DNA of 63,971 nucleotides, the filler included, from Ionaspis alba (taxonomy: Eukaryota), in the NCBI GenBank assembly GCA_964255285.1. It is 3 parts of 3 records of this genome, joined end to end, with 100 filler letters (N's around TTAATTAATTAA, not from the genome) between each part and the next. Parts side by side here need not be neighbours in the genome. Positions count along the whole stretch, not along the records: positions 1 to 22,055 come from CAXUUL010000216.1; 2 more parts are not named here. The stretch is one strand, 5' to 3'. Shown here in pieces: positions 1 through 56,396 of this stretch (its first letter is position 1; every line of letters begins with the position of its first letter). The notes under the pieces were generated by a model. The model was not told the DNA's origin. It was given only the letters and a program-made list of their open reading frames with translations, and ran no database searches. A program made the translations under genes and the position numbers.

Positions 1-1785
1 GAGCGGGCTTTGGCGAGACTAGTTGACGCGCCTCATCGAGGGTTTTGGGTACGATGATCGTGCCGTCGGCGGCTGTTCCGTCCCCTTGTACGTGCTGTTC
101 TTTGAGACGCCCGAAGAGTAGTTTGAGACTACTGTCCAGCGTGTTGCTGATATTCTTGAAACTTTGGTCAGCGGTTGTCCGGACGGCGTCGCTGGCTGTT
201 GTGAAAGCGCTGGTAGGAGGCTGGAAGAGGGTGCTAAGGCGGCGTTGATGACTTGGCGAGACAGGAGGCGAGGGTTTGGCGGTAGTAGAAGACGAGAGAG
301 GACGAGCCATGGGAACAGAAGTCGGGGGGCTCGGAGTGGCAGTCAGAGGGTTTGTTGCGGGCGATGAGAGGCTGGCTTGGGTTGGTAGTCCTGGATTCCA
401 GGGACTTGGGTTTTCGAATCTTGGCGTTGACGGTCGGCTGGATGACTTTGGAGGCCCCTCTAGAGCTTCATCAGCACGTAGACTAGCGAGATCGACAGTC
501 TCTAGAAATGTTATGGCGGCTTCGAGGTTTGTTAAGCAGTATGCTGCTTCGCCGTTGATTCTGTTGGCAGATCGAAATCTCTGAATGAAACTTAGATTGC
601 TGATGGCATTCACCCGCTCAGCAGGCGATGTAATCAAAGTGTAGATCAGTGTTGGTAGAATCTCATCTGCTGAAGATGATGATTGGTGTAGCTTTGTTAG
701 AAGATCGACAATATTTTGATGGGCAGATGTGAGGTTTTGTATCTTCGTCATTGGATTGCGAGACATGTTCATTCGAAATAGGCCTTCTCTCGCCTTTGAG
801 ATGCCTTCCTCAACCTGGGACGCAATTATCTGCGAGGAAGAGTCTGATGTACTCGATGCCTCCAAATCAATTCCGAGATCTTTTAGTCCAATGCCGACTA
901 GCGAAAGTGCAGCTGTTCGAGATCGAAGCTTCTCGTCTCTGACTTCATCCAAAGTACTCCGATGTCGCCAGATTCTATCGTATATACCTTCACACACTCT
1001 TTTCTCTACCGCCTCTTCCAATGCTACTCGCTTGTATTCTAACATTCTTCTCGCCTTCCTTCTTTCAGAAATCTCGTTTGGTGTGAGCATCTGTTGCTGC
1101 GGCGCGACTTTGTCAAGCAGGTTCAAGGTGTCCTTTGAAGTCTTGGATGTCAGCCGGGAGGCTGTCTTGGCATTTACTGAACTCTTTGAAGATATGGATG
1201 GGGCAGGCGAAGCTTCTCGGGACTGCTTGCTCGAGAGAGCCCGGATGTGTGTAGAGATGTGAGCTTCTGCCTGGACATAAAAGTCTTGGAAGATTTCAGA
1301 AAGCCTGTCGATGGATGGAGGTGTGGAGTAAACTTTCGCGGTTGTGAGGGAAGCAATGAATCTATAAACAAAGCTGTAGGTCAGTACAGACTGTACTAGC
1401 TAGACGTGACATACACATACCGGTCGGTCAAACTGATTAGCTCGATGGGTAGCTCATCAAAACCATCAGGAAGGCTGTCAATCGTCGCTTTAGAAGGTAG
1501 TCTTGCAGCTCTGGGTTCTCGAGAACTCTCCTCGGAGAGCCTTTTCTCGAAGACATCTTCTTGAGGCGGAATTTCTTCGAGGTTTCCATGAGAGAATTGT
1601 TGCTCATCCGGGCTTGACAATTCGTTGACCACCCCGTTTTGTAGGGTACTGGCTCTATTTCGTGAGGGAGTATCAGGCCTTCGCGGTTCGAAACGAGAAA
1701 AGGATTTGGAGGAGTGAAGGTTATGGGGACGCTTGGCCTCGATAGAAGCCAAACGATTCGCCGAGGAGGCCGGGTCTGTAGCCAT
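1..1785 (-). CDS. VPS9-domain Rab5 guanine-nucleotide exchange factor (Muk1/Vps9-like); 3' end runs off the window
   Basis: ATG at 1785 (MATDPASS), intron 1420-1362 (GTATGT...TAG). Exon 2 encodes SSSSADEILPTLIY...SNLSFIQRFR...GEAAYCLTNLEAAITFLE, the VPS9 catalytic signature. Confidence 0.88.
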
Positions 1786-1976
1786 GGCAGTGATGAATGT
1801 CCATCTGTCAGTGTTGTTGCGTAAGTGAGGTAGTAAGACTGGAGTTAGATCATCTGCTCCGAACAAACAAACCAGACTTGGTAACGGGTTATATTCTTGC
1901 AATAAAGAAATACAGTCTGGAAAGTACGAGACTTGCTTCCACAATGTCTCTCCTGTCTCTTGCCGCAGGGAAATCT

Positions 1977-1984
1977 AAAAAAAA
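1977..1984 (-). terminator. RNA polymerase III T8 terminator of the tRNA-Arg gene
   Basis: Eight T's on the minus strand, beginning 2 nt after the discriminator base at 1986. Confidence 0.8.
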
Positions 1985-1985
1985 T

Positions 1986-2107
1986 TGAACGTGCACGGGA
2001 TCGAACCGTGAATCTCCTGATTCGTACTATAGTCTATGTTATTACTAGCCATTATTCAAAGTATGGGGAGACGAACGTCAGGCGCCTTGCCATTGGGCCA
2101 CACGTCC
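1986..2107 (-). tRNA. tRNA-Arg(ACG) with a 50-nt insert (2076-2027) between positions 32 and 33
   Basis: Exon 1 (2107-2077) GGACGTGTGGCCCAATGGCAAGGCGCCTGAC plus exon 2 (2026-1986) TACGAATCAGGAGATTCACGGTTCGATCCCGTGCACGTTCA give a 72-nt cloverleaf: acceptor GGACGTG/CACGTTC, anticodon stem CCTGA/TCAGG, loop CT-ACG-AA, T-stem CACGG/CCGTG, T-loop TTCGATC. Confidence 0.93.
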
Positions 2108-2138
2108 ACATTTTAAATATTCCATTTTCAAAAATATC

Positions 2139-2146
2139 TATATATA
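2139..2146 (-). promoter_or_regulatory. TATA-like element at about -32 to -39 of the tRNA gene
   Basis: TATATATA inside the palindrome ATCTATATATAGAT in an AT-rich flank, at the position expected for TFIIIB binding. Confidence 0.5.
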
Positions 2147-2586
2147 GATGTTGATACAGTACAGAAAAAATTTCCTGAGAAAGGACATTTTCAAACAAGA
2201 TTACTTTTCGTATAATGTAAAGATATCGCATTTCACCATTATCTTTGTTATGTACTATGGGGTGCCTAAAGTGTATATACCTCTTAAGGGCAGGAATCTG
2301 CTTTAATGGACTAGCAGTATATGGTTTCAAGCGTCGTATACGATGTTGAAGGACATGTGCGTGGAGCCATTAATATAGGTATTATAAAAGAATGATGGAT
2401 TTCCCTGAGTTTCACACGACTTTGGTGACGGTTGCATCCCAAACTGCTCACGGAACTTTCCGCATCCGCGCATTTGTAGGATCATAGTCACAAGCCTCGA
2501 GGCGGAACAAATGCCCATGACTCGAACATGCAGTTTTGAAACCGACTATCAACGAATTTCCTCTTTCTTTATTTCTACACAACGCC

Positions 2587-4452
2587 ATGAAGGAATTTAG
2601 ATCATCACTGAAGACCTGCCCATCTGCTGGCCGGATCACCGCTCGATTGTTGTTGTCCTTCCTTGCCGTATCGCCATCGGTGGCGGGGAGTTGGGCCGAC
2701 AACTGGAACAGAGCAGCACAACAAGCTCCTCTACTTCCTTACCTTCCCCCTGCGACAGAAGGTAGTCCCGAAAACACCGAAATCCTGCCACAAGAGCACG
2801 ACTTCTCTTTGCGGCACATTTTTCACCACGGAGCCTATCTATACCCAAATCTACATCGCCGGCTGGATGTTAACATCGAGCAAGGAGTCCGGACAACAGA
2901 TGAAGATGGAGAGGAATTACCCATATCTTTACATGCGCGGTCGAACGGTATAAGTATACAAAGACTTGTGGATCGACGATCTGAGACTGTTCAGCCATTA
3001 TTGAGTGCCGCTCGACTCGATGGCAGACCGCCCACTCTTCCCGCTGCTGCCTGGACCACGGACGAGGTGGCGGCACCAAATGTCACGGACAAAGAGACCG
3101 TACTGAGCCTTGCACTCATGGCAGCGAATGCATACAACAAAGGACCGGGGATAGGGGATTGGGAGGATGTCAAGCACGGCTTCAATTTCTCCCAGAGTTT
3201 CGGATGGGAACAGGACGGGTTACAAGGGCACATATTTGCGGATAAGACGAACTCCACTATCGTCATCTCTTTGAAGGGGACTAGTGTCGCTGTGTTCGAC
3301 GGGGCAGGAACGACTACGAATGACAAGGAGAACGACAACCTATTTTCAGGCTGCTGTTGTGGCCAAGGCGGGCAGTATCTCTGGAAGACTGTTTGCGACT
3401 GCACCACCGCTGCCTATTCCTGCAATGAGACTTGTCTGATTAAATCTATGAGGGAGAGACATCGCTACTACCAGGCTGCCACCGAGCTCTATACTAATGT
3501 CACAGAGCTCTACCCCACTTCTGACGTTTGGATCACTGGCCACTCGTTGGGAGGCGTTGTCTCGAGTCTCTTAGGACTTACCTTCGGAGTGCCTGTCGTG
3601 ACTTTCGAGGCCTACGGAGACGCACTCGCTGCCGGCAGACTCGGACTCCCAACACCTCCCGATATGGGAACGAAACGTATTCAAACCAGACAGAATACTG
3701 GGGCCCATCATTTCGGACATACTGCCGATCCTGTCTTCATGGGCTCATGCAATGCAGCCACTTCTGGGTGCACCCTCGCAGGCTTTGCCCTACAGTCACA
3801 ATGCCATACCGGTAAGATTTGCGTTTACGACGTGGTCGAGGACAAGAAGTGGCGGGTTTCTCTTTCAACGCACAGCATCAGAGCTGTCATCCGAGATGTC
3901 ATTAGAGGATATGATGATGTACCGCCTTGTGTAACGGATGAAGAATGTGTCGATTGCTACAATTGGAAGATGTTCAAGAGCAACGGATCGGAGGTGACAA
4001 CCACAAAGTCGAGTACATCTACCTCGACTGCCACCTCATACACACGCACCGAAACGTGCAAAACGCCTGGCTGGTTTGGGTGCCTAGTAAGTCAACTCCT
4101 TATTACTCCTTCATAACTCGAGGCTGATGTCGTTACCTCTTTCAAGGATTCTAGTACCACAACGACGACAACATCATCTTCTTTGAGCACCACGTCAACC
4201 TCAACCAGCACCACAGTTACTTGCACACACTACGGCTGGTTCGGAGGTTGTCTTGATCCGACGACGACAACAACGACCACACCAGCGTCGACAGTAGCCG
4301 CATCCATGACGACTGTCCCTAGGGTGTCCGCAACCGTCACGACACCATTGACACCATCCCACACGTGTTTAACCCCAGGTATTTTCTGGGGTTGCAAGGA
4401 CAAGACTACGACTGTCGAAGCTCATGCAATGACAGCAGCCCCAGGTCTTTGA
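2587..4452 (+). CDS. ATG15: Autophagy-related lipase Atg15
   Basis: [42 protein letters not shown] and the GHSLGG lipase motif; intron 4087-4146; Thr-rich C-terminal tail. Confidence 0.95.
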
Positions 4453-5041
4453 GTTTGTATCGTAGAGCGCGGAGCGCCTCATATTGCAGAAGTTTTGAGT
4501 GGAGGTGACCTTTTCGAAGGATAAGGCGACACGCTATGAGAATATGACGGTTGAGGCTCCAGCAAGAGGGACCGAGGGCTTTGCGGGGTGTCTAGCATTT
4601 TGGAGCAGGCATTTGGTTGCACAGGTTTTGAAAGCATAGCGCGGAGTTTGGGATAGTGATGGATGACGTGGAAATTGATATACCGGAAGGGCATCCATAG
4701 CTATAGATTGTATCTATTATACATCTTGATTTTCATTTTGCTTCTTTCAATTTAAAAAACACCCCCCGATGTGCTGGTGAATTTCATGGCCCTGGTTTCG
4801 ATAGTTTCCTGATGTTCCTTATGCCACTGACTATGCGTAGAGGACATCGAGTTATACGGAAACTGCTTCCGGTCAAATTTCAGTTGCCTGTGACAGTCAT
4901 GAGCGTTCAAAAAGAAGAAATGGCGGGTGAATTGCTGTAAGTATGCTGGCTACGCTAAGCTAGCTTGCGGCTATACTCGTTGCCTGCTCACACACCACTC
5001 AGCTGTCCTGACAAGTCCAACCAAAGAAGAGTGCACCCAAT

Positions 5042-6626
5042 CTAGTTCATCTGCTTGATCAAAGCATTGATCTTGTCCTCCCGATTTCCCAAATCGCCAC
5101 CCTCGACGAAGTGCTTAAACTTCCTTGTCCTAAATCCACCAGTGGGATTGCTAAGCTTGAACGGCCATAAGAAGTTGCTTGCCTGCTTAAAGTTGGGTCC
5201 CACAGTGTAGATCTCGTGGATCAAGTCCTCCATGCATACAATTCCTAACTTACCAAGACTGGCTTCAACGATCTGGTTGTCCGTAAGAGGAATACGTTGC
5301 TTGTCAACCTTCCCATATCCACGCTTGTAGATGAGTTCGCGGACAGTCTTGATTGATGGGTATCCGTAGGCGATCCAGGGTTCCACGACTTTGAGCATCT
5401 CGCCAGTGGCTTTGGTCATGCGGACGAAAACTCCATTATTGATTTGGAGAAGACGAAGGAGTTGGAGGATCTTGCGGGGTTTGGGAGCGATCTTGTTGAT
5501 ACTATTGAGACACGCGTTAGCAGTGACAAAGGTGATTTGTGTCGGAGGCTTTGCTTACCCCTTAATTCGGACAACGAAGATGAGCTTAGCCTCGGCCGGG
5601 ACATAGTAGGTGCCTTCTTGCTTGCTCAAGCGGTGAAGGCGGATCTTTTCACGCTCTGCATCGCGGTACTCCTTAACGTAGGATTCGGCACGTTTGAAAA
5701 TGACACCACGCTTCTCCTTAGCAGCCTATTGTTTTACCACCGTCGTCAGTGGCATCCTTGTTTTTCGTAGAAGAAAATTGAGAGAGAGGAACGACGACGA
5801 TTTCAGTCCCGAAAGATGGTTAACAAGACGACAACATTGACTCGAAAGCCTAGTCGCGAGTATGGTGTATATCATCACCATCGTGTAGCACCCCACAAGG
5901 TAACAGAAATTCCAACAATACCATACCTTCTTCCTCTTCTGTAGCTCAGCAGACTTCTCCTCACGAGCCTTCTCTTGACTCTTACGCTTCTTCAAGAGAG
6001 TCTCTGGGACCATGATATCATCGTGAGTAGGGACGGATCTGTACAAATGGCGAAAAGTCGCCAGGTCAGTATAGTCTGTCCAACAAGATAGATAATAAAT
6101 TACGCCGAGTGAGAAGAATTGCAGCATGAGCAGCATTCTCGGATTTGAGTATCGACTCGACGAAATATATTTGATCGGTGAGGTCGACTCCTGCTACTAA
6201 GCTCTGTCCCAGACGGAACTCGAGCCGGTCACAAGGAACCATTTCCTCAATCGACAAGACCCCAAGCAAAGCTCAGGAAGTATGCACACACATGTTCGAG
6301 CCCCCATTTATCACCTGCGAGGCGGGCAAGCTGATGATCGAAGGTCGAGTGCGGCACTTTATTTAGAGGAGAAGAGCAAAATCTTCAGCCTCAAAACCCC
6401 AGTGCCAATTGTCTGCGAAGAATTGCGTGACAGATGGCTATGGGACTGATCAAGCTGGTACTAGCATCCTTGGTTGCTCAAGGTGTAGTTACCCCAGCGG
6501 GTATGGCCACGACTATAGCTGACTTTGACTTCGAGCAGTGTTGGAAAGATGGTGGTGTCAAGGGGAGCCATACTTTTTGTCCGATTTCTTGTCCGACTTG
6601 GACAGTTTCGAGTCTTTGGGTGCCAT
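5042..6626 (-). CDS. RPL7: 60S ribosomal protein L7 (uL30), 4 exons
   Basis: Exons 6626-6574 (MAPKDSKL...), 6038-5927 ([10 protein letters not shown]), 5725-5559, 5501-5042 ([13 protein letters not shown]...[15 protein letters not shown]); all introns GT-AG and frame-consistent. Confidence 0.96.
5797..5884 (-). ncRNA. Box C/D snoRNA in RPL7 intron 2 (snR39B/SNORD2-type LSU rRNA methylation guide)
   Basis: Terminal stem ACGAT/ATCGT, C box GTGATGA (5878-5872), D box CTGA (5806-5803) preceded by ACCATCTTTCGGG, which is complementary to the conserved LSU rRNA stretch CCCGAAAGAUGGU. Confidence 0.85.
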
Positions 6627-6884
6627 CGCGGTGACCGGTGATGCGCCAAGTGGAGGGTATCGCGGTATGCTGTTGTGGTTTTCTACGTCAAGTAAACCTT
6701 CGGTACAATTTTCACAGTGAGGATGTGGGCGAAGCTAGTGCTCTCGCTAAAGAATCACGCCAACGAAGCCCCGAGAAGCGCGGGCTTGGCGGGCTTCAAT
6801 CCTACGCACGGGCTTACTCTATCATTGTTATACCCCCAATAACTTCCACCATTTCTCGGTTGCTCCTGCAACAACTGTACCACG

Positions 6885-7725
6885 ATGTCCGCTCGTCGAG
6901 GCCGTGGGGTGGGTCTTTCCGCCTTTCAAAAACACTCCTCCCTCACATCCTCATACGCAACCCATGGCGCTGCATTACGCTCGACGAATGTCACTTCCCT
7001 CCAAACCCAGCTGTCCGTCTTCCAACAGTTGCTCCACACGTTCGCTCTTCAGCACTCCGAGACCATCAAGCAAAACCCGACCTTCCGAGCCGAGTTTGCT
7101 CGCATGTGTAATGCAATTGGTGTAGACCCTCTCGCAGGCAGTAATGTGGCGGGCAAGAAGAAGGGAAAGGGCAACTGGTGGACACAGATCATGGGCGGAG
7201 ATATGGAGGATTTCTACTTGAAGGTTGCGTTGAGAGTTGTGGAGGTGTGCAGAGCGTCAAGAGGAGAGAATGGAGGATTGATGGCGGTCGAGGAGTGTAA
7301 GAGGTTGGTAGGGAAAGGAAAGGCGATTGGTGGGGGGATGGAGGTGAGTGAGTACGTGCAATCTTTGGCCTGAGAGGTGATAATCTGGATCAGTGTACTG
7401 ATCCGTATGCAGGGATGATATCCTCCGGGCTGTCAAATACCTCAAACCGCTTGGATCCGGCTTCTCAATCATCACCGTTGGTAGCAAGCAGATGATCCGA
7501 TCAATACCGAAAGAGCTGAACACGGACCAGGCAACGGTTCTCGAAGTTCTACAGGTCCTCGGCTATGTGACAGTATCCATGCTCGAAGACAACCTGAAGT
7601 GGGAAAACGCAAGGGTGCAGACTGTAATCGAAGATCTGATGGCAGACTCGCTCATTTGGGTGGATGACAAGGCCCAGGAAAAAGAATATTGGTCGCCAAC
7701 ATTCTTGCATGATTTGGACGACTGA
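6885..7725 (+). CDS. SNF8: ESCRT-II subunit Vps22/Snf8 (EAP30)
   Basis: MSARRGRGVGLSAF, FRAEFARMCNAIGVDPLA, IRSIPKELNTDQATVLE; intron 7352-7412. Confidence 0.95.
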
Positions 7726-7885
7726 AGAGGCATGAATGTCTTTGTGCAAGCCTATTTCGTCCACTCTGACGCAAAATCCTACACGCCATTTTCAATGCCA
7801 AGCAGAGCGCCAAAGGGAGCCAATGCACATCCATAGATGCCACAACAGATGGGAACGCCAAAGGAGAAAGGCCAGCACAATTAGC

Positions 7886-10786
7886 TTATGCTTTGATGGC
7901 TCCACCGAGAGCACCCCCACCGAACTGCTGTCCACCACGAGTCCTGGCTCCACCTCTATCGCCTCGCATTCCTCCTCTACCGCCTCTACCACCACGACCA
8001 CCTCGCTGACCACCTTGCCTTTCGAAAGCATTGGCCATACCTTGCGTTCTTGTTTCCAGCGTTCTTTCGTTCGCTTCGATGAGTCCGCTGGCTTTATCAC
8101 TCAGCGTGAGAGCGAGGCTTTGCAGTCTTGACAGCTCCACGCCCTTTCGGAAGATAATGGCACTATTGACTTGGTCGAGGGCTGCCGCAAGCTCTTCGTG
8201 AGAAATCATCTTGCTGACGACAGCCGCGACCTTCCGCTCCGAAAGCTCAAACATCGTTGCAAGAGTGTTGACGGCAAGGGTATCGTAGAAAGGAGCATAG
8301 GTGAAGAGGTATGTCCGCAGGCCTTCCTCTTGGATCTGCTCCGAGAGCATCATCTTGATCTTGTCGGAATCTGCCATCAAGTCCCAAATCTTGATTGAAT
8401 TGATCAGCTCGACTGCCCTCTTCCATTCCCCAGCGGCTAATGCCCTTGAGGCTTGCATGACATGATCCCGCGTGTTTTCGGGTGGTCCAGTGAAAATCTG
8501 ACGCTCATGAAATTCGAGGTATCTGCGGTATGTCTTGCTGATGACACGCTTCTTTATGTCTGGTGAAGAGCCAGTCTGTGCGAGAAGTGGGATCTCTAGG
8601 AGCATCGAGCAGGTTAGGTAGACACACTCTAGTAGTTCGAGATTGATGTGCATGTGGAATGGAAGTTGACGTTGTCTCTCCAAGCGCTCTTGCTCAGGCG
8701 TGACTTGTGAATAGCGCTGGATCATGACACCTTGTGCCAACAACTCCTTTTGTCTTCCACTGCCACAGATCTCTTGCAGCGTGTTCTGTGACTCATAGAC
8801 AAGACCGGCTCGGAAAGCACATAGACCGACTTGGACGAGTGTACGATTGAACAAGATCTGTGTGCTAATGTCGAAGTTCCCGATTGTCTCTTGTAAATGG
8901 GACATGAGCAGCATATCGCGGGCACGGTAATACTGATCGTGAAGAGCGCAGAAATAGACCTGGCAAAGATAGGCGCGTCCACGGATGATGTCTGTGCTGT
9001 TTTTGAAGAGATAGGTGCACAGCGTTTGCATCAGCGCAGCGGTGTTTGGGATCTTTCCTCGTGGAGTTATCTTCGAATCGAGCTCGGAAGGGACGGATTT
9101 CCAAGCATTCTCTTCTAGGATGTTAACGACAGAAGAAGGCTGGAAATAACTATTAGCTATGCTGCGAACGAAGAAGATAGTCTACGAACCTTGAAGTAAA
9201 TATGTTCCACTCTTCTCATTACCAGCCGATTGGCATTCTCTTGAGGCGTCTCTAGCTTAGGGTCTGTCTTCAATTCCTCAATGTACAACAGGGCACGGAG
9301 TATCTTGTTGTAAAGAGATTGCTCGTCACTAAGACGCTCGATATACTCCGCAGTATGAGGGTCGATGTGCTGAAGGGATCGTGTGAGCTCGTCGTCAAGA
9401 CGTTCAACAATGGAAACTATGCTCCCTGGCACACGTAGCCTTTCGTCACCAGTAGGTTGTGGAGGCTTTTCGTCATCCTCCCATGGCTCAGCATTCTCAA
9501 CGACGACTATATCACGGTTGTCTTCCAATACTTCGAGCAGATTCTTGAACTCTTGATCGGCCCTATATTGATGGTTAGCTGGTTGTCAGCATACTGTAGA
9601 AAATCGTCGTATCTTACATTTTCCACTGCTCCTGAGACATGAAAGTCGCCGAAGACCCGGTAGTCAAATCGAAGCGTGTAGAGATAATGGTGAGGAGTAC
9701 TCTAATTTTTTGGTAAGGAGTTACAGCGACCGCGAGCAGTCTCTCCATCGTCCGGATATGCTCCGTCCTGTCGGTGTTTTTCTTTCCTCTCGACTCGGTG
9801 ATAGTGCGTAGATGTGCAAAGATACTCTCGGGGGTGTACTGCAAGGTTCGCCCACCCCGTCCAACGGTTGAAAAGCCCAGGTCGTCATCCACCTCCGCAT
9901 TGCTGATATAGACGTCCTTTTTGCTACTCCTTTTNNNNNNNNNNNNNNNNNNNNNNNNNNNNNNNNNNNNNNNNNNNNNNNNNNNNNNNNNNNNNNNNNN
10001 NNNNNNNNNNNNNNNNNNNNNNNNNNNNNNNNNNGGTCGTCATCCACCTCCGCATTGCTGATATAGACGTCCTTTTTGCTACTCCTTTTCTCGACGGGTG
10101 CCGACTCCTCCTCCTCATCCGACATCATGTAGTCAAACTTATCTTCTCGATACTTTTCAATCTCGGTCGCATAGTCCTTGTTATTCCGCTTGATCTTCTG
10201 CTTCATGGCGTTGAGGCCCTTGGCATTTGTGGCATTCATTTTCTTAGTAGTGACCTTCTGCTTTGCTATTGTCTCGTTCATAAGATCTTCTAGGTCGGAT
10301 ACCGTCTTGATGTAAGCCTTAGGAGCTTTGTCGGCAGCTGCAATCTTGGTGACTTGACGATTTAATTTATCAAACTCTGTAAGAGAAGAGATTAGCTCAA
10401 GCACCTGGAATGGTCCCTCATTGTGGTAACGTACCAGTAGATATGGAACTCCAGTCATTGATCTTGATAGCGTTGTCGATCAGCTTGATCACCCCCTCCA
10501 ACTCCTCTAATCTCTTGTTCTTTGCGCTCTTGACGACTTTTGGAGTATCCTCATCTGAACTGGCGCCTTCACTCGACGCAGCATCTTTCAAGAACTTGGA
10601 CACCCCAGTTTTACCACCTTCATCCTCAGACGACGAAGACTCCTCATCCTCATCCTCGTCCGAATCTTCACTTGACTCTTCCTCCTCCGATTTCTGCTGT
10701 GCTTCTTCCTCGCTGTAGAGCTCCTCCTCGTCCTCCGAACTGCTCTCGCTGGAGCTATCGCCTGCGGCAAAGAAACGTGAGGACAT
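7886..10786 (-). CDS. NIP1: Translation initiation factor 3 subunit C (eIF3c)
   Basis: MSSRFF followed by an acidic N-terminus; [14 protein letters not shown] and [17 protein letters not shown] domain; RGG tail. Introns 10434-10377, 9617-9563, 9189-9140. Spans an N gap with duplicated flanks. Confidence 0.96.
9935..10034. other. Scaffold gap with about 55-bp duplicated flanks (assembly artefact)
   Basis: GGTCGTCATCCACCTCCG...CTACTCCTTTT occurs both immediately left (about 9880-9934) and right (from 10035) of the 100 N's. Confidence 0.9.
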
Positions 10787-11617: not shown

Positions 11618-14685
<3,068 letters not shown>

Positions 14686-16525
14686 TTCACCAGTTATTGT
14701 ATTGAAGAAGTCTTGCTTATGTCGAACCGTGGGTTGTCCCCAACAACAGACGTTTGATTTCTCGGCGTTTCAGTCGAGGCAGAACCAAACTGCTGGATCG
14801 CTCGTGCTGTTTGGCACATGAAGCGATGTATCCCCAGTGTTTATTGCGAGCTTCAAAGGTAGCACGATACTGGGACGAATTACCAGTTCCAAAGGCGTTG
14901 TAGGGAGGCCCTAGCAAAGAAGCTCGCGGAGCAGGATCGCAATCGCAGAACTAATGGTCGGGCTCAATGCAGTAGGGACCTGGACTGCGAGGCATCAGGA
15001 GGTACTGCTCGAGTCAGCAATAGCTTTTCCTGACTGAGAACATGTCGAGGGATCGTCGTCAGTCTGCCAGCACAGCGTGGGCCAAGACGTTCCCGAGTCC
15101 GGGGTAATTAATTCGTGGGCAAGCTGAGACAGGTGGACTGCTCCAGCGTAGAACTTGTGGACAGTGGCCCGGTGAATAAGGATTTGAAAAATGATCCTCC
15201 CTAGCTGATACAGACTAGGTGATGAGCGAGGAACAATTATAACTGAGTTTGCGTCGTAGGCCACAAAGAGAGAATCGATGTTCTTTGGGCGCAGGATGAA
15301 AGGGCAAAATCACCGCCTGCATCTGGGTAAGACACAGCCCGTGATTGGGCTCTGCGAACCCAGCGCCCAAGATACCAAGAGGATCGGGTAGCGGCTTCCA
15401 CATCTTCATTGTTTGATCGCATCATTATCACGGTTATCCATGTGCTGCACTTTCAACGATGATTCCATTAATCTCCTATGACTCGATCTGCGGCCTGGAA
15501 TATTATGAGAGACGTAAGCTATTGCTGAGCAACTGGTTGTGCCGTCCAGAAACCTTTCCAATGGTTTGGCACCTACGTTGGAAAGATTGGGGCATGTTGC
15601 CTCAGTCACAACTATGCAGGTATCTCGTTCACCGTGAAACGATTGGGAACGATTACTCCATGGTCTTGGTCCTAGAGACATGGGCATCCAGCCTCCAATT
15701 TTGCAGAGGTCAGGCAAAGTAGGAATACTGACTGGGACTCAGTAATGCTGCAGGTTAGCACCACGAGCAGGCTTCCATAGGCTACTGAGCAAATTTGTCG
15801 AACCATTGATAGACTCAAATTATAGGACCAAAGACGAACAGATAGTATCTACATGTAGAGATGATTCTCCCGGGTCGTGTTTTGTAGGGAGAAGACCCGT
15901 CTGAATAGAACGTCCCCTCCATACCGTCCATACACATGAGGAGACACTTCGAAAGCTGGTATGCTGCACCCCGTGTATGATCTACAGAATCCGGGTCGAT
16001 ATCTGGGCGATCCGCAGCTATGCAAAACGATAGAAGGTATTCACTAATAACTCGAATTGTNNNNNNNNNNNNNNNNNNNNNNNNNNNNNNNNNNNNNNNN
16101 NNNNNNNNNNNNNNNNNNNNNNNNNNNNNNNNNNNNNNNNNNNNNNNNNNNNNNNNNNNNGCGCGCTAGGATCCTGCTAGGCTACCCCTGGCACTGACGT
16201 ATAGAATCAGTGAGTCGGAACTTAAGAGCATCAAATAATCCGTAGGCAGGAATGTGATATCCAACAGTTCAAACCGCATTACATCCTGAATATACAGCAG
16301 ACTCATCGAGTATTCTGGCATGGGGGTTGGATGGGGAGTTGGAGTCCACACACCCTAATCGTCGATATGCAACACGTCCTGGTGATAATCTATATACCCT
16401 AAAGTCCAGAATTGCCAAATAGCTTCGTCACGCCGCTTACAGTCCAGTCTGTGCCCGGTTGAGATTTTCTGATTCTGGAGGCATATAGACTGCTATGCTA
16501 GAGTCAAAGAACTGGATGCGACACC

Positions 16526-53500: not shown

Positions 53501-56396
53501 TGCGACCTCACATTAATGCCATGTCTCTGTCGATGGAACATGAAGGAGGTGAACGATATTCACTCGATGAATCATTGATGGAAAGAATGATGTTTGGTGA
53601 CGAAGCTTTCCCTTCGTCCAAGTTGACAGTCCAGCGTCGCATGCATCCAGATATCGCAGATCTGTCTCGTGCAGGTGACTATCCTTATCTAATTGACCAC
53701 GAATCAACTAAGATCCATCCTCCGGTAGTTGGAATGGTAGATCGTCTCTATTGGCTCGATCATCATCAGCCAGAAGATAGGCCTGACATAGGTTCTCCAA
53801 TGGCACGTTCCCACTCTAATCGACATGAAGTCGAGTTCTGTGCTGGACTAGTCAGATACTTGGTTGAGATTGGAGGCTACCAGCTCGGCGAGATCGCGAT
53901 TCTCACACCTTACAATGGTCAGCTAGCTGCACTTGCTGGTCGACTGCGGACAACGTGCTCTATCTGGCTAAGCGACAAGGACCGGGAGTCGCTCATCGAA
54001 CAAGGCATGCTACCAGAAGGGGACTCGATTGGGCTTGTCAAGACTACTGTGGATCTCTCGAGTATGCTACGAATTGTGACAGTGGACAATTTCCAGGGTG
54101 AGGAAGCCAAAGTAATCATCTTCAGTGCTGTTCGCAGCAATGATCGCGGAAAAGTCGGGTTTCTCAAAACTCGAAATCGGATCAACGTTGCGGTCAGTCG
54201 GGCACGAGATGGTTTTTACGTCGTCGGAAACGCCAGTCTCATGAGCAAAGTGAATCACTGGTCTGCGGTACTTAGTGTTTTCAAGAGCAAGGGCATGATC
54301 GGTGAGACCCTAAAAGTCTGCTGTTCTCGACATGCCGATCACAGATTCGAAATACAAGAGCCAGAGCAGTTTCAACAAATTCCTGCCTGTGCAAGGCTCT
54401 GCTCAGAAGTCCTAATTTGTGGCCATACGTGTACAGAACCGTAAGTCCTGTCCTTCTCTTAGCTTTACGCAACTGATCTAAGGTGCATAGATGTCATCCT
54501 CTGGCGATGCACGACGATGGCCGGATGAAATGCAGTCAAATGCTCTCACAAAATCTGGATTGTGGGCATGAGATCTCTTACAAATGCGGGCAGAAGCCTG
54601 GCAAATGCACTTTCCATTTCCCAGCTCTTCGACTTCCTTGTGGCCATCTATATGCACCGACTTGTGCGGAGAAAGCTGCAGGGCTAGAGCTTAAATGCCA
54701 ACACCCTATCGCTAAGCTTCCTTTGCCGTGCGGGCATTTCAAGGACATAGTATGCTCTGCTACTCGGCAAGCAATACTTTGTGAAGAGGAATGTGGAGCT
54801 GCGTTACCTTGTGGGCATACCTGTGCTCAGCCTTGTTCGACCTGTCAAGGCACCAAGGAACATCCCGAGTGTCAGAAGCTTTGTGGAGAAAGCTTGCCAT
54901 GTGGACATGATTGTAAGCAACCTTGCCACGAGGGAGACTGCGGTCCATGCCAACAAAAATGCTCTCGAGGCTGTCACCATGGCTCGTGCGATTGGGTATG
55001 TAGTACTGTTTGTGATCCTTGTATCAAGACGTGTGAAAAACAAAGCTGCAAGCACCAAGACATCTGCGACGGGTTATGCTCTCTACCTTGTGCACAGCTT
55101 CCATGTTCAGAACCTTGTAATCGTCCACTTCTTTGTGGACTACATCTTTGCTACTCACTTTGTGGTGAGACATGTCCTTCCGAGTGTATTCAGTGCGTCT
55201 CTGGGAGTGCGCCATCTGTTCGACAGATCACACTCGACTGTGGACACTGCTTTCCAGTTACAGAACTCGACGAAGCGTTCCACATCAAGGATCTCTACCA
55301 TGTCAGTCCATCAGGAGAAATCGAAGCAGGTGGTGTCACAAGAATGCCATCGACCTTTGGCATCCGTTGTCCCGAATGTTGGACGCCTGTTGTCAAGGCT
55401 CGACGCTACATCCTCGCCAACCAACTAGGAGAAGTTCCTGACACCATTGACCGTCTCTACTGTAAATTGGGCAGGAAGCTTTCCAACTATGTCACAGACA
55501 TATTCAGATCCGAAGAATACCTTGGCGTTACTTTTGACGGCTTCTGTAACCAGGTGAAGCCAGGACCACTCGCTGGCAAGCAGAACCAAAGACTGGTCTG
55601 GGATAGAACAAATCAGATGCTCGAGGTCCAGCAGATCCTTACCAAGTACCGAGACGAAGTAACTATACCCATTGAGGAATACGTTGCTCAGCTAGCCACT
55701 TTCATCGACAACGAGAACATTCTTACTGCGGCAGTCTTGCCTTATAGACTTCGATTTGACCTCCTCTATTTTAGATGTCGACTCATCACTCTGGAGGACG
55801 GCCTCAAAATGTTTCATTACCTCGACCAACTGAGTCGACTTGACAAGCACACATTGATCATGGCCGAAGCTCTGAAGTTCAAGATTCTGGAGCAGAGCAC
55901 TGGAGAGATTGAGTCCCTTGGCGAACGCATCGAAGAATGCGAGAAGCGACACCTGATCCGGCTAGAAGTTGAACTACGCCTCGTCCAACTGTGTCTACAC
56001 ATGATCCTCGCTAATCTCTCGAGCGACAGCGGAATTGATATCCCAGCCAGCAAGAAGAGAGTCAGCGATCTGTGCCGACGGTTCCCGGACACAGCGGGCA
56101 AGCTCCTCAAGAGTTTTCAACTTCTACGAGCATACCTCGATGGAGGTCCGGCGCCTAAACGACTCTACGATTTGTACTCCAGAGACGTGAGGGAGCTATG
56201 GTGGAACTATGGAAAGCACAAAGTCGGTTCTCTTTGTCATTGCCCATACGGCCATCCGTACTCCGAGCCAACCTTTTCGGAATGCCCTGAATGTGGCCGA
56301 GAGGTCGAGCTGGAGCTGCCAGAGCCTCAAGTCAATGTGGAGGCTATTCTCAACAAGAACGCTTTTCTTGCGCACTTTGGTATTGGTACGAAGTGA
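50572..56396 (+). CDS. ZNFX1-like SF1 (Upf1-type) helicase with CCCH finger, NF-X1 zinc-finger array and C-terminal RZ-like finger; 5' end uncertain
   Basis: CCCH (CQDFVYGFCKNRDACSKIH), RHDNDFESIKDIRILPTTDE, GPPGTGKT, EESSE, GDPLQLRP, QRRMHPDI, TVDNFQGEE, RINVAVSRA, many LPCGHxC repeats, CPYGHPY...CPECG. Introns 51434-51491, 51942-51993, 54441-54490; probable upstream exons 50852-50867 and one ending at 50774. Confidence 0.9.

Follow-up and report, generated by a model that had tools for sequence, protein, structure and literature searches.

A tRNA-Arg(ACG) gene interrupted in its anticodon loop

The DNA analysed here, a stretch of 63,971 nucleotides (nt) from Ionaspis alba (GenBank assembly GCA_964255285.1) made of three parts joined end to end and referred to throughout as the window, carries on its minus strand a tRNA-Arg(ACG) gene that is interrupted inside the anticodon loop by 50 nt beginning with GT and ending with AG. 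All coordinates run along this window, and those of the features discussed are collected in Table 1. About 200 nt downstream of the tRNA, on the same strand, lies the first ATG (~1785) of a gene encoding a VPS9-domain protein. With introns allowed, ARAGORN found one tRNA in the whole window, tRNA-Arg(acg) at c[1985,2108] with a score of 111.5, and placed its 50-nt intron between tRNA positions 32 and 33. The split gene was missed by a default tRNA scan and by a whole-window Rfam run at the gathering threshold; when 1850-2250 was searched alone with laxer filters, the Rfam tRNA family RF00005 scored 44.5 bits over 1986-2107 (-), against a gathering value of 29 and with E 2.1e-08, and in the resulting alignment 56 nt stand in for the 6-nt loop segment of the model. 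By both ARAGORN and Rfam, excision of the insert restores all four arms and the 7-nt anticodon loop C-U-ACG-A-A, and the predicted spliced junction reads GCCTGAC joined to TACGAATC. The gene further contains candidate internal boxes, recognised by the consensus for such elements (A box TGGCCCAATGG at 8-19 and B box GGTTCGATCCC at 52-62 of the tRNA), and is bracketed by an upstream TATATATA element and a terminator-like run of eight T. A first-pass annotation of this DNA had described an otherwise intact tRNA-Arg(ACG) equipped with internal boxes, an upstream element and a T8 run; the two scores agree with the former, and each of the latter can be read in the sequence around 1986-2107.

The borders of the insert are exact. 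C32 differs from the last intron nucleotide (G50) and the first intron nucleotide (G1) differs from U33, which leaves the cut unable to slide. The same annotation had placed 50 nt after C32, with a GTTCGT start, a TAG end and TAATAAC about 12 nt before that end, and had held that only one excision is possible; ARAGORN and the sequence agree on the former, while the differing flanking bases and a joint found in a second organism bear out the latter. Two public sequencing runs, X1 (organism A) and X2 (organism B), contain this DNA (window 1-10000), neither of them recorded as RNA, and their contigs were compared over 1000-3200. In organism B, one contig runs from 2026 on to 2077 and lacks exactly the 50 nt; this joint reads CT..AC on the plus strand, which is GT..AG on the gene strand. 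Another organism thus has an intronless gene with the same exon ends, which shows the predicted junction to be correct. The contigs proper to organism B have depths of 17-46, unrelated flanks and loose ends at 1977/1981 and 2110/2113. A second joint in this run, 2028->2090 at a depth of 41.5, sets the final AG of the insert before the 3' exon and retains no more than the first 18 nt of the 5' exon; it may come from a related tRNA gene in which another insert occupies the same position. Over 1338-3200, pieces of depth 2-3 that are identical to the window stand beside the organism B contigs, which suggests a trace of organism A in the organism B run and accounts for its 0.33 word share.

Within the window, the insert is not repeated, no other match longer than 12 nt being found by blastn-short. 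It also lacks any run of four or more T, and hence any such stop for RNA polymerase III (Pol III); among the mRNA introns of the window, 5 of the 15 that were mapped first contain such runs. Several other ways of reading the insert were tried and rejected. Inspection of the sequence showed that a parse with the intron at the canonical position 37/38 would need the anticodon UUC and put G at position 33, where U is universal. Group I introns are known in the anticodon loops of bacterial and plastid tRNAs and have a ribozyme core of about 200 nt or more; the present insert has only 50 nt, and C32, not U, precedes its 5' cut. An Ire1/HAC1-type site was likewise discarded, as the cleavage motif of that system has G before the cut and the 5' cut here follows C.

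Run X1 holds 95% of the words of this DNA. Its contig 1909-2117, at a depth of 57, spans the gene and the insert without a difference, so that the insert as first annotated is carried unchanged, along with the whole gene, by a de Bruijn contig. On each side, two haplotype paths run into this contig, which is unbranched at both exon-intron borders. Beyond this island the two haplotypes diverge: 22 of the 345 sites of 1564-1908 differ, as do 14 (listed) of the 41 in 2118-2158. At the flank rate of 6.4%, calculation gives about 13 differences expected in the 209-nt island, 4.6 in the 72 exon nt (P(0) ~0.009) and 3.2 in the insert (P(0) ~0.04). The lack of any change across gene and insert, right beside flanks that differ by about 6%, would argue for constraint on the gene, given that a dead gene should have drifted. 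At the TATATATA element, the second haplotype departs at 2146 and 2147. An intronless joint was not seen in the X1 contigs, and an identical intronless copy is not evident in them, though contigs cannot prove its absence. Over 1564-2529 the X1 haplotypes are about 6% apart in intergenic DNA, and upstream of the tRNA they show insertions of 4, 8 and 1 nt at 2399, 2443 and 2475 and a 122-nt skip (2237->2360); the organism or sample behind this run is heterozygous or mixed.

The insert beside the mRNA introns of its host

Sixteen mRNA introns were mapped in the window for comparison, 12 of them by protein homology (three in eIF3c, six in a gamma-glutamyltranspeptidase [GGT] gene and three in a helicase gene, one of the latter with an ambiguous 3' site) and four by joining open reading frames (ORFs), an approach whose intron screens were too noisy alone when homology was lacking. 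Removal of the predicted introns yields eIF3c and helicase models that translate with a terminal stop only; the GGT model retained four stops before its sixth intron was recognised, and this sixth intron removes the stops of its own exon. Intron lengths were 50 (six times), 51 (twice), 52, 55, 57, 58 (twice), 60, 61 and 100 nt. Fifty nucleotides, the length of the tRNA insert, is therefore both the mode and the minimum, being found in 6/16 introns overall and in 6/12 of those supported by homology. The donors comprised GTAAGT (four introns), GTACGT and GTCTGT (two each), and GTATGT, GTAGGT, GTGAGT, GTGAGC, GTAAGA, GTCAGA, GTAAAT and GTTCGT, each seen once; G stands at +5 in all but one of the 16. 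A motif of the form NTRAY, mostly CTRAY, occurs 10-16 nt from the 3' end in 10 of 13 introns and has its counterpart in the ATAAC of the insert at 12 nt, although the motif is loose and frequent by chance.

The closest match is an intron of eIF3c, which we used as a control. The Ptychographa eIF3c protein aligns across 9189-9140 as ...HIYFK/PS..., and this alignment together with the stop-free translation confirms the first-pass observation that a genuine mRNA intron of this window has the same GTTCGT donor and the same 50-nt length as the tRNA insert. By eye, the likeness between the two is limited to GTTCGT and AGACTAT.

As a control for chance, all 126,352 50-nt windows on both strands were screened for a full set of signals, namely GT..AG ends, G at +5, T at +6, a base other than G at -3, and NTRAY 10-16 nt from the end. 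GT and AG ends alone were found in 546 of these, and only 10 carried the full set: the tRNA insert, the verified introns 9189-9140 and 54441-54490, two decoys (7344-7393 and 29869-29820), each with one end in common with a real intron, and five unverified segments that are mostly intron-like. The same filter was passed by 6 of the 13 introns mapped by then. The second decoy had been tried as an intron and was rejected, since its excision breaks the GGT frame; it makes up the 3' half of a 100-nt intron, 29919-29820. Taken together, length, donor, acceptor and the position of ATAAC, each set against the introns of the host, indicate that the insert very probably belongs to the spliceosomal-type class, and this part of the earlier interpretation stands.

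The donors of this host are unusually varied, with C or T at +3 in 5/16, and several of its branch sites are degenerate. A further donor-like site, GTTCGTCT..., lies at 15839 (-), where two ORFs of an uncharacterised gene with several exons meet; it would open a putative intron whose first 8 nt are those of the tRNA insert. Inside an eIF3c exon, a run of 100 N at 9935-10034 is flanked on both sides by the same stretch of about 54 nt (~10036-10089 and 9881-9934), which looks like an overlap left unmerged by the scaffolder and not like biology.

Protein similarity places the host among lichen fungi. The eIF3c fragment is 88-89% identical to its counterparts in Ptychographa, Lambiella and Xylographa; GGT is nearest to Xylographa and Trapelia, and the helicase to Trapelia, pointing to a Lecanoromycete-like lichen fungus. 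Relatives of the split gene were sought by its exon ends separated by a gap of 35-65 nt, a search that returned two metagenome-contig and two genome-contig loci, all of them bacterial and coding-like. ARAGORN finds no tRNA in any of the four, which we accordingly regard as chance matches. Elsewhere in the window, the ORF at 14083-14769 (-) belongs to a family of small proteins (~160-320 aa among the 100 representatives listed, E <= 0.001) with no Pfam match, and its gene is distinct from the neighbouring kinase gene.

Table 1. Positions of the split tRNA gene, its insert and the features compared with them, along the window.
Feature	Position	Strand	Description	Basis or remark
tRNA-Arg(ACG) gene with insert	1986..2107	-	122 nt; 72 nt exon up to discriminator A73	ARAGORN -i, Rfam
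5' exon, nt 1-32 in standard numbering	2077..2107	-	31 nt, without position 17	acceptor, D arm, 5' strand of anticodon stem, C32
3' exon	1986..2026	-	U33, anticodon ACG (2025-2023), A37, A38, 3' strand of anticodon stem, variable loop, T arm, acceptor, A73	
Insert, probably of spliceosomal type, between nt 32 and 33	2027..2076	-	50 nt	ARAGORN; skipped in organism B contig
Donor-like GTTCGT	2071..2076	-	nt 2-6 predicted to pair with A38-A34 in the anticodon loop as well	
Branch-like TAATAAC	2038..2044	-	candidate branch A at 2039, 12 nt from insert 3' end	
Acceptor-like TAG	2027..2029	-	acceptor also of 6/16 mapped mRNA introns	
T8 run, Pol III terminator-like	1977..1984	-	one base past A73	putative terminator, from sequence
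TATATATA	2139..2146	-	-39 to -32 from tRNA 5' end	putative role, from sequence
Island identical in both X1 haplotypes	1909..2117		0 differences in 209 nt	
eIF3c mRNA intron, control	9140..9189	-	50 nt, GTTCGT...GCTAATAG...CAG	Ptychographa protein alignment, translation
mRNA introns of the exactly 50-nt class	9189-9140, 29785-29736, 29575-29526, 28948-28899, 28552-28503, 54441-54490			

Competing routes to a mature tRNA

We favour, with moderate confidence, the reading that this is a functional tRNA gene whose insert is removed by the spliceosome. From the features above we infer an expressed gene whose insert is taken out, with the spliceosome as the agent. The precursor would be either a Pol III transcript that is directed by the A and B boxes and ends in the T8 run, or a read-through transcript of RNA polymerase II (Pol II). 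From this precursor the spliceosome would take out a U2-type GT-AG intron of exactly 50 nt between C32 and U33, bringing back the 7-nt loop, and ordinary end processing would then yield the tRNA. Under removal by the spliceosome the splice features are all expected, and the helix described next costs roughly the frequency of a GTTCGT donor (1/16).

Folding of the precursor predicts a helix between the insert and the anticodon loop. Intron nt 2-6 (UUCGU) are perfectly complementary to A34-C35-G36-A37-A38, and a cloverleaf-constrained fold of the precursor (-29.4 kcal/mol) gives the i2-i6/A38-A34 pairs probabilities of 0.77-0.98. The predicted extended arm consists of the anticodon stem of five base pairs (bp), a 2-nt bulge (C32/G1), the 5-bp helix, a 1-nt bulge (U33) and the pairs C7-G50 and U8-A49. 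In this predicted fold both cuts sit 1 nt 5' of the same helix on opposite strands, and thus have the symmetry of a bulge-helix-bulge (BHB) motif. The strict BHB, as the relevant passages of PMC3978253 define it, has two 3-nt bulges around a 4-bp helix and is cut after the second bulge nucleotide. It is impossible here, because in the required register U2-A37 and U3-G36 pair and C4-C35 and G5-A34 do not (2/4). The first-pass annotation had stated that no BHB can be formed, which the register upholds for the strict motif; it had overlooked the BHB-like 2-5-1 fold. Five Watson-Crick pairs in this register arise in 0.14% of random sequences of the composition of the intron. The donor itself supplies the helix to a considerable degree, given that a consensus GTNNGT pairs at 3 of the 5 places and GTACGT at 4 of the 5, and the eIF3c intron, alone among 13 host introns tested, would give the same five pairs if moved to this site. 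The helix would therefore be largely a by-product of a splice donor placed opposite this particular loop.

Several observations weigh against removal by the spliceosome from a functional gene. In the predicted fold, the helix i2-i6/A34-A38 would hide the donor from U1, and tRNA introns of the endonuclease type are expected to show such anticodon-intron pairing. A small hairpin of the cloverleaf-constrained fold engages the candidate branch A, and when the 122-nt precursor is folded without constraints it is no stabler than shuffled sequences (z = -0.86). By the measure of the host the 5' splice site is weak, with T at +3 in only 1/16 mapped introns; the exon before the insert ends in C, where G precedes 8 of the 13 tabulated introns; and ATAAC lacks the leading C of most mapped branch sites. 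As to the contigs, run X1 may be the source of the window itself and not independent of it, and contigs of this kind are no proof against further Arg(ACG) copies. The identical island also includes a 77-nt trailer of no known function, which may belong to the promoter or 5' untranslated region (UTR) of the VPS9-domain gene, so that the conservation may not reflect selection on the tRNA. Finally, full-text searches of the literature turned up no published tRNA gene with a spliceosomal or mRNA-type intron, and the prior for such a case is low for this reason.

The alternative that survives best, although we consider it unlikely, is that the insert is an intron of an overlapping Pol II transcript, for example in a long 5' UTR of the VPS9-domain gene, from which the tRNA would be freed by RNase P and RNase Z, or in which the tRNA gene is dead. 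The short distance to the VPS9-domain gene and the shared strand are as expected for such a host transcript; moreover, TATATATA could serve either polymerase, Pol II would pass the T8 run, and splicing of any inserted intron restores the tRNA sequence whatever the transcript. Set against this, the A and B boxes and the terminator just past the gene fit an ordinary Pol III unit. For a dead gene it can be said that where a eukaryote has many synonymous tRNA genes and one of them carries an insertion, reviews treat that one as a probable pseudogene, in the passages of PMC4090602 on this subject. The exons are nevertheless unchanged between haplotypes that differ by 6% next door, and no identical copy free of the intron is evident in the X1 contigs.

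Distinctly less probable is a tRNA-type intron at a non-canonical site, cut by the tRNA splicing endonuclease (TSEN) through a BHB-like structure, independently of the mature domain, and ligated by Trl1, with GT and AG being coincidental. The 2-5-1 fold, with its BHB symmetry around both cuts and a helix so rarely matched by random sequences, speaks for this reading, under which the helix is expected. Eukaryotic pre-tRNAs feature intron-anticodon pairing, and there are eukaryotic endonucleases that cut away from the canonical position, according to the pertinent parts of PMC4090602 and PMC3978253. Yet the strict motif with these cuts is impossible, the site is 32/33 and not the canonical 37/38, and the helix comes mostly free with the splice donor, to the point that the verified eIF3c intron would reproduce all five pairs. 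Cleavage by TSEN also leaves unexplained G1, the terminal AG, the pyrimidine at -3 (TAG), ATAAC at 12 nt and the 50-nt length, features that by a rough estimate would coincide in less than 1 in 1000 cases. The yeast-type enzyme measures from the mature domain to 37/38, as set out in the passages of PMC3978253 on its specificity, and the cases of non-canonical cutting presented in those parts of PMC4090602 and PMC3978253 that deal with it concern a red alga and nucleomorphs, with no fungus named.

An artefact of assembly or sequencing, or a random and unprocessed insertion, is very hard to credit as the source of the insert: the window does contain a scaffolding flaw elsewhere, the 100-N gap with duplicated flanks, but the X1 contig (possibly the source data) carries gene and insert unchanged at its depth of 57, and the full set of splice signals occurs in fewer than 1 in 10,000 random 50-nt pieces.

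Spliceosomal introns in noncoding RNA genes and the meaning of a possible tRNA case

To our knowledge, nuclear tRNA introns are held to be removed solely by the tRNA endonuclease and ligase. Ectopic spliceosomal introns in the nuclear ribosomal DNA (rDNA) of lichen-forming ascomycetes were reportedly described by Bhattacharya and colleagues in 2000, as papers citing their work relate. That lichen fungi carry such introns in their rDNA is also set out by Armaleo and Chiou (2021, PMC8527467), where a 57-bp rDNA intron of Cladonia grayi is spliced from Pol I transcripts in yeast rDNA; the passages of that paper devoted to these introns mention no tRNA case alongside them. The insert described here resembles the lichen rDNA introns in its host, which protein similarity places in the same fungal class, and in being a short GT-AG intron within a translation-apparatus RNA gene that is not of the Pol II type. 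For both, any removal has to come from the machinery of the host. The present case differs in that the host gene is a 72-nt Pol III-type tRNA, that the intron sits in the anticodon loop, and that its removal is proposed from sequence.

The second parallel is the fungal U6 gene. The sole U6 gene of Schizosaccharomyces pombe, a Pol III gene, contains an intron which the spliceosome excises, and mRNA-type introns occur in U6 of S. pombe and other fungi as well as in U1, U2 and U5 of Rhodotorula; in the portions of PMC5855946 that relate this, the noncoding RNA (ncRNA) genes listed with spliceosomal introns are snRNA and rRNA genes only. Common to U6 and the gene studied here is a Pol III-type gene whose intron bears a 5' splice site, a branch site and a 3' splice site, all canonical in U6. 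[quoted passage not shown] A further difference is that tRNAs already own an intron system in TSEN and the ligase, so that the spliceosome would be a second route for the same class of RNA. For the U6 introns, the corresponding section of PMC5855946 favours an origin by reverse splicing followed by reverse transcription. By analogy, an mRNA-type intron would most likely have been inserted into the tRNA sequence in the way proposed for fungal U6 and lichen rDNA, and an origin of the tRNA insert by reverse splicing is plausible.

Non-canonical tRNA introns form the third group for comparison, and are ascribed to Cyanidioschyzon merolae, to the nucleomorphs of cryptophytes and chlorarachniophytes and to Crenarchaeota in the sections of PMC4090602 and PMC3978253 that cover them; no fungus is named among the non-canonical-position cases there. 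Shared with them are a site away from 37/38 and, in the predicted fold, a helix flanked by both cuts on opposite strands. Those introns, as the same sections portray them, have a BHB or relaxed BHB with a 4-bp central helix, or measure only 3-24 nt (Guillardia nucleomorph). The insert in tRNA-Arg(ACG), in contrast, begins with GT and ends with AG, contains a branch-like motif, matches the modal length of the mRNA introns of its host, and in the predicted fold forms a 5-bp helix between a 2-nt and a 1-nt bulge. What would be new is thus an ectopic spliceosomal intron, of the sort known from fungal ncRNA genes, in a tRNA gene and in an anticodon loop for the first time.

If removal by the spliceosome is true, it would constitute a third route of tRNA splicing beside endonuclease with ligase and the self-splicing group I introns, and a small, tightly folded Pol III transcript could serve as a substrate of the spliceosome. 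It would also document a natural intron gain in an RNA away from the spliceosome active site, and so bear on what determines the insertion of introns into ncRNAs, a question raised in the discussion of U6 in PMC5855946. Since default tRNA finders and filtered Rfam scans miss genes of this kind, more of them may await in published genomes. For the host itself, we put forward tentatively that the spliceosome of a lichen fungus has taken over the maturation of at least one essential tRNA, at an Arg(ACG) locus that is possibly the sole copy of this exact sequence and would yield tRNA only once the 50 nt have been spliced from its anticodon loop. The ectopic introns of lichens would then extend from rDNA to tRNA, adding to the idea, developed in parts of PMC8527467, that the translation machinery of lichen fungi is loaded with introns dependent on the host, and a second component of the translation apparatus would come under spliceosome-dependent, possibly growth-limiting control.

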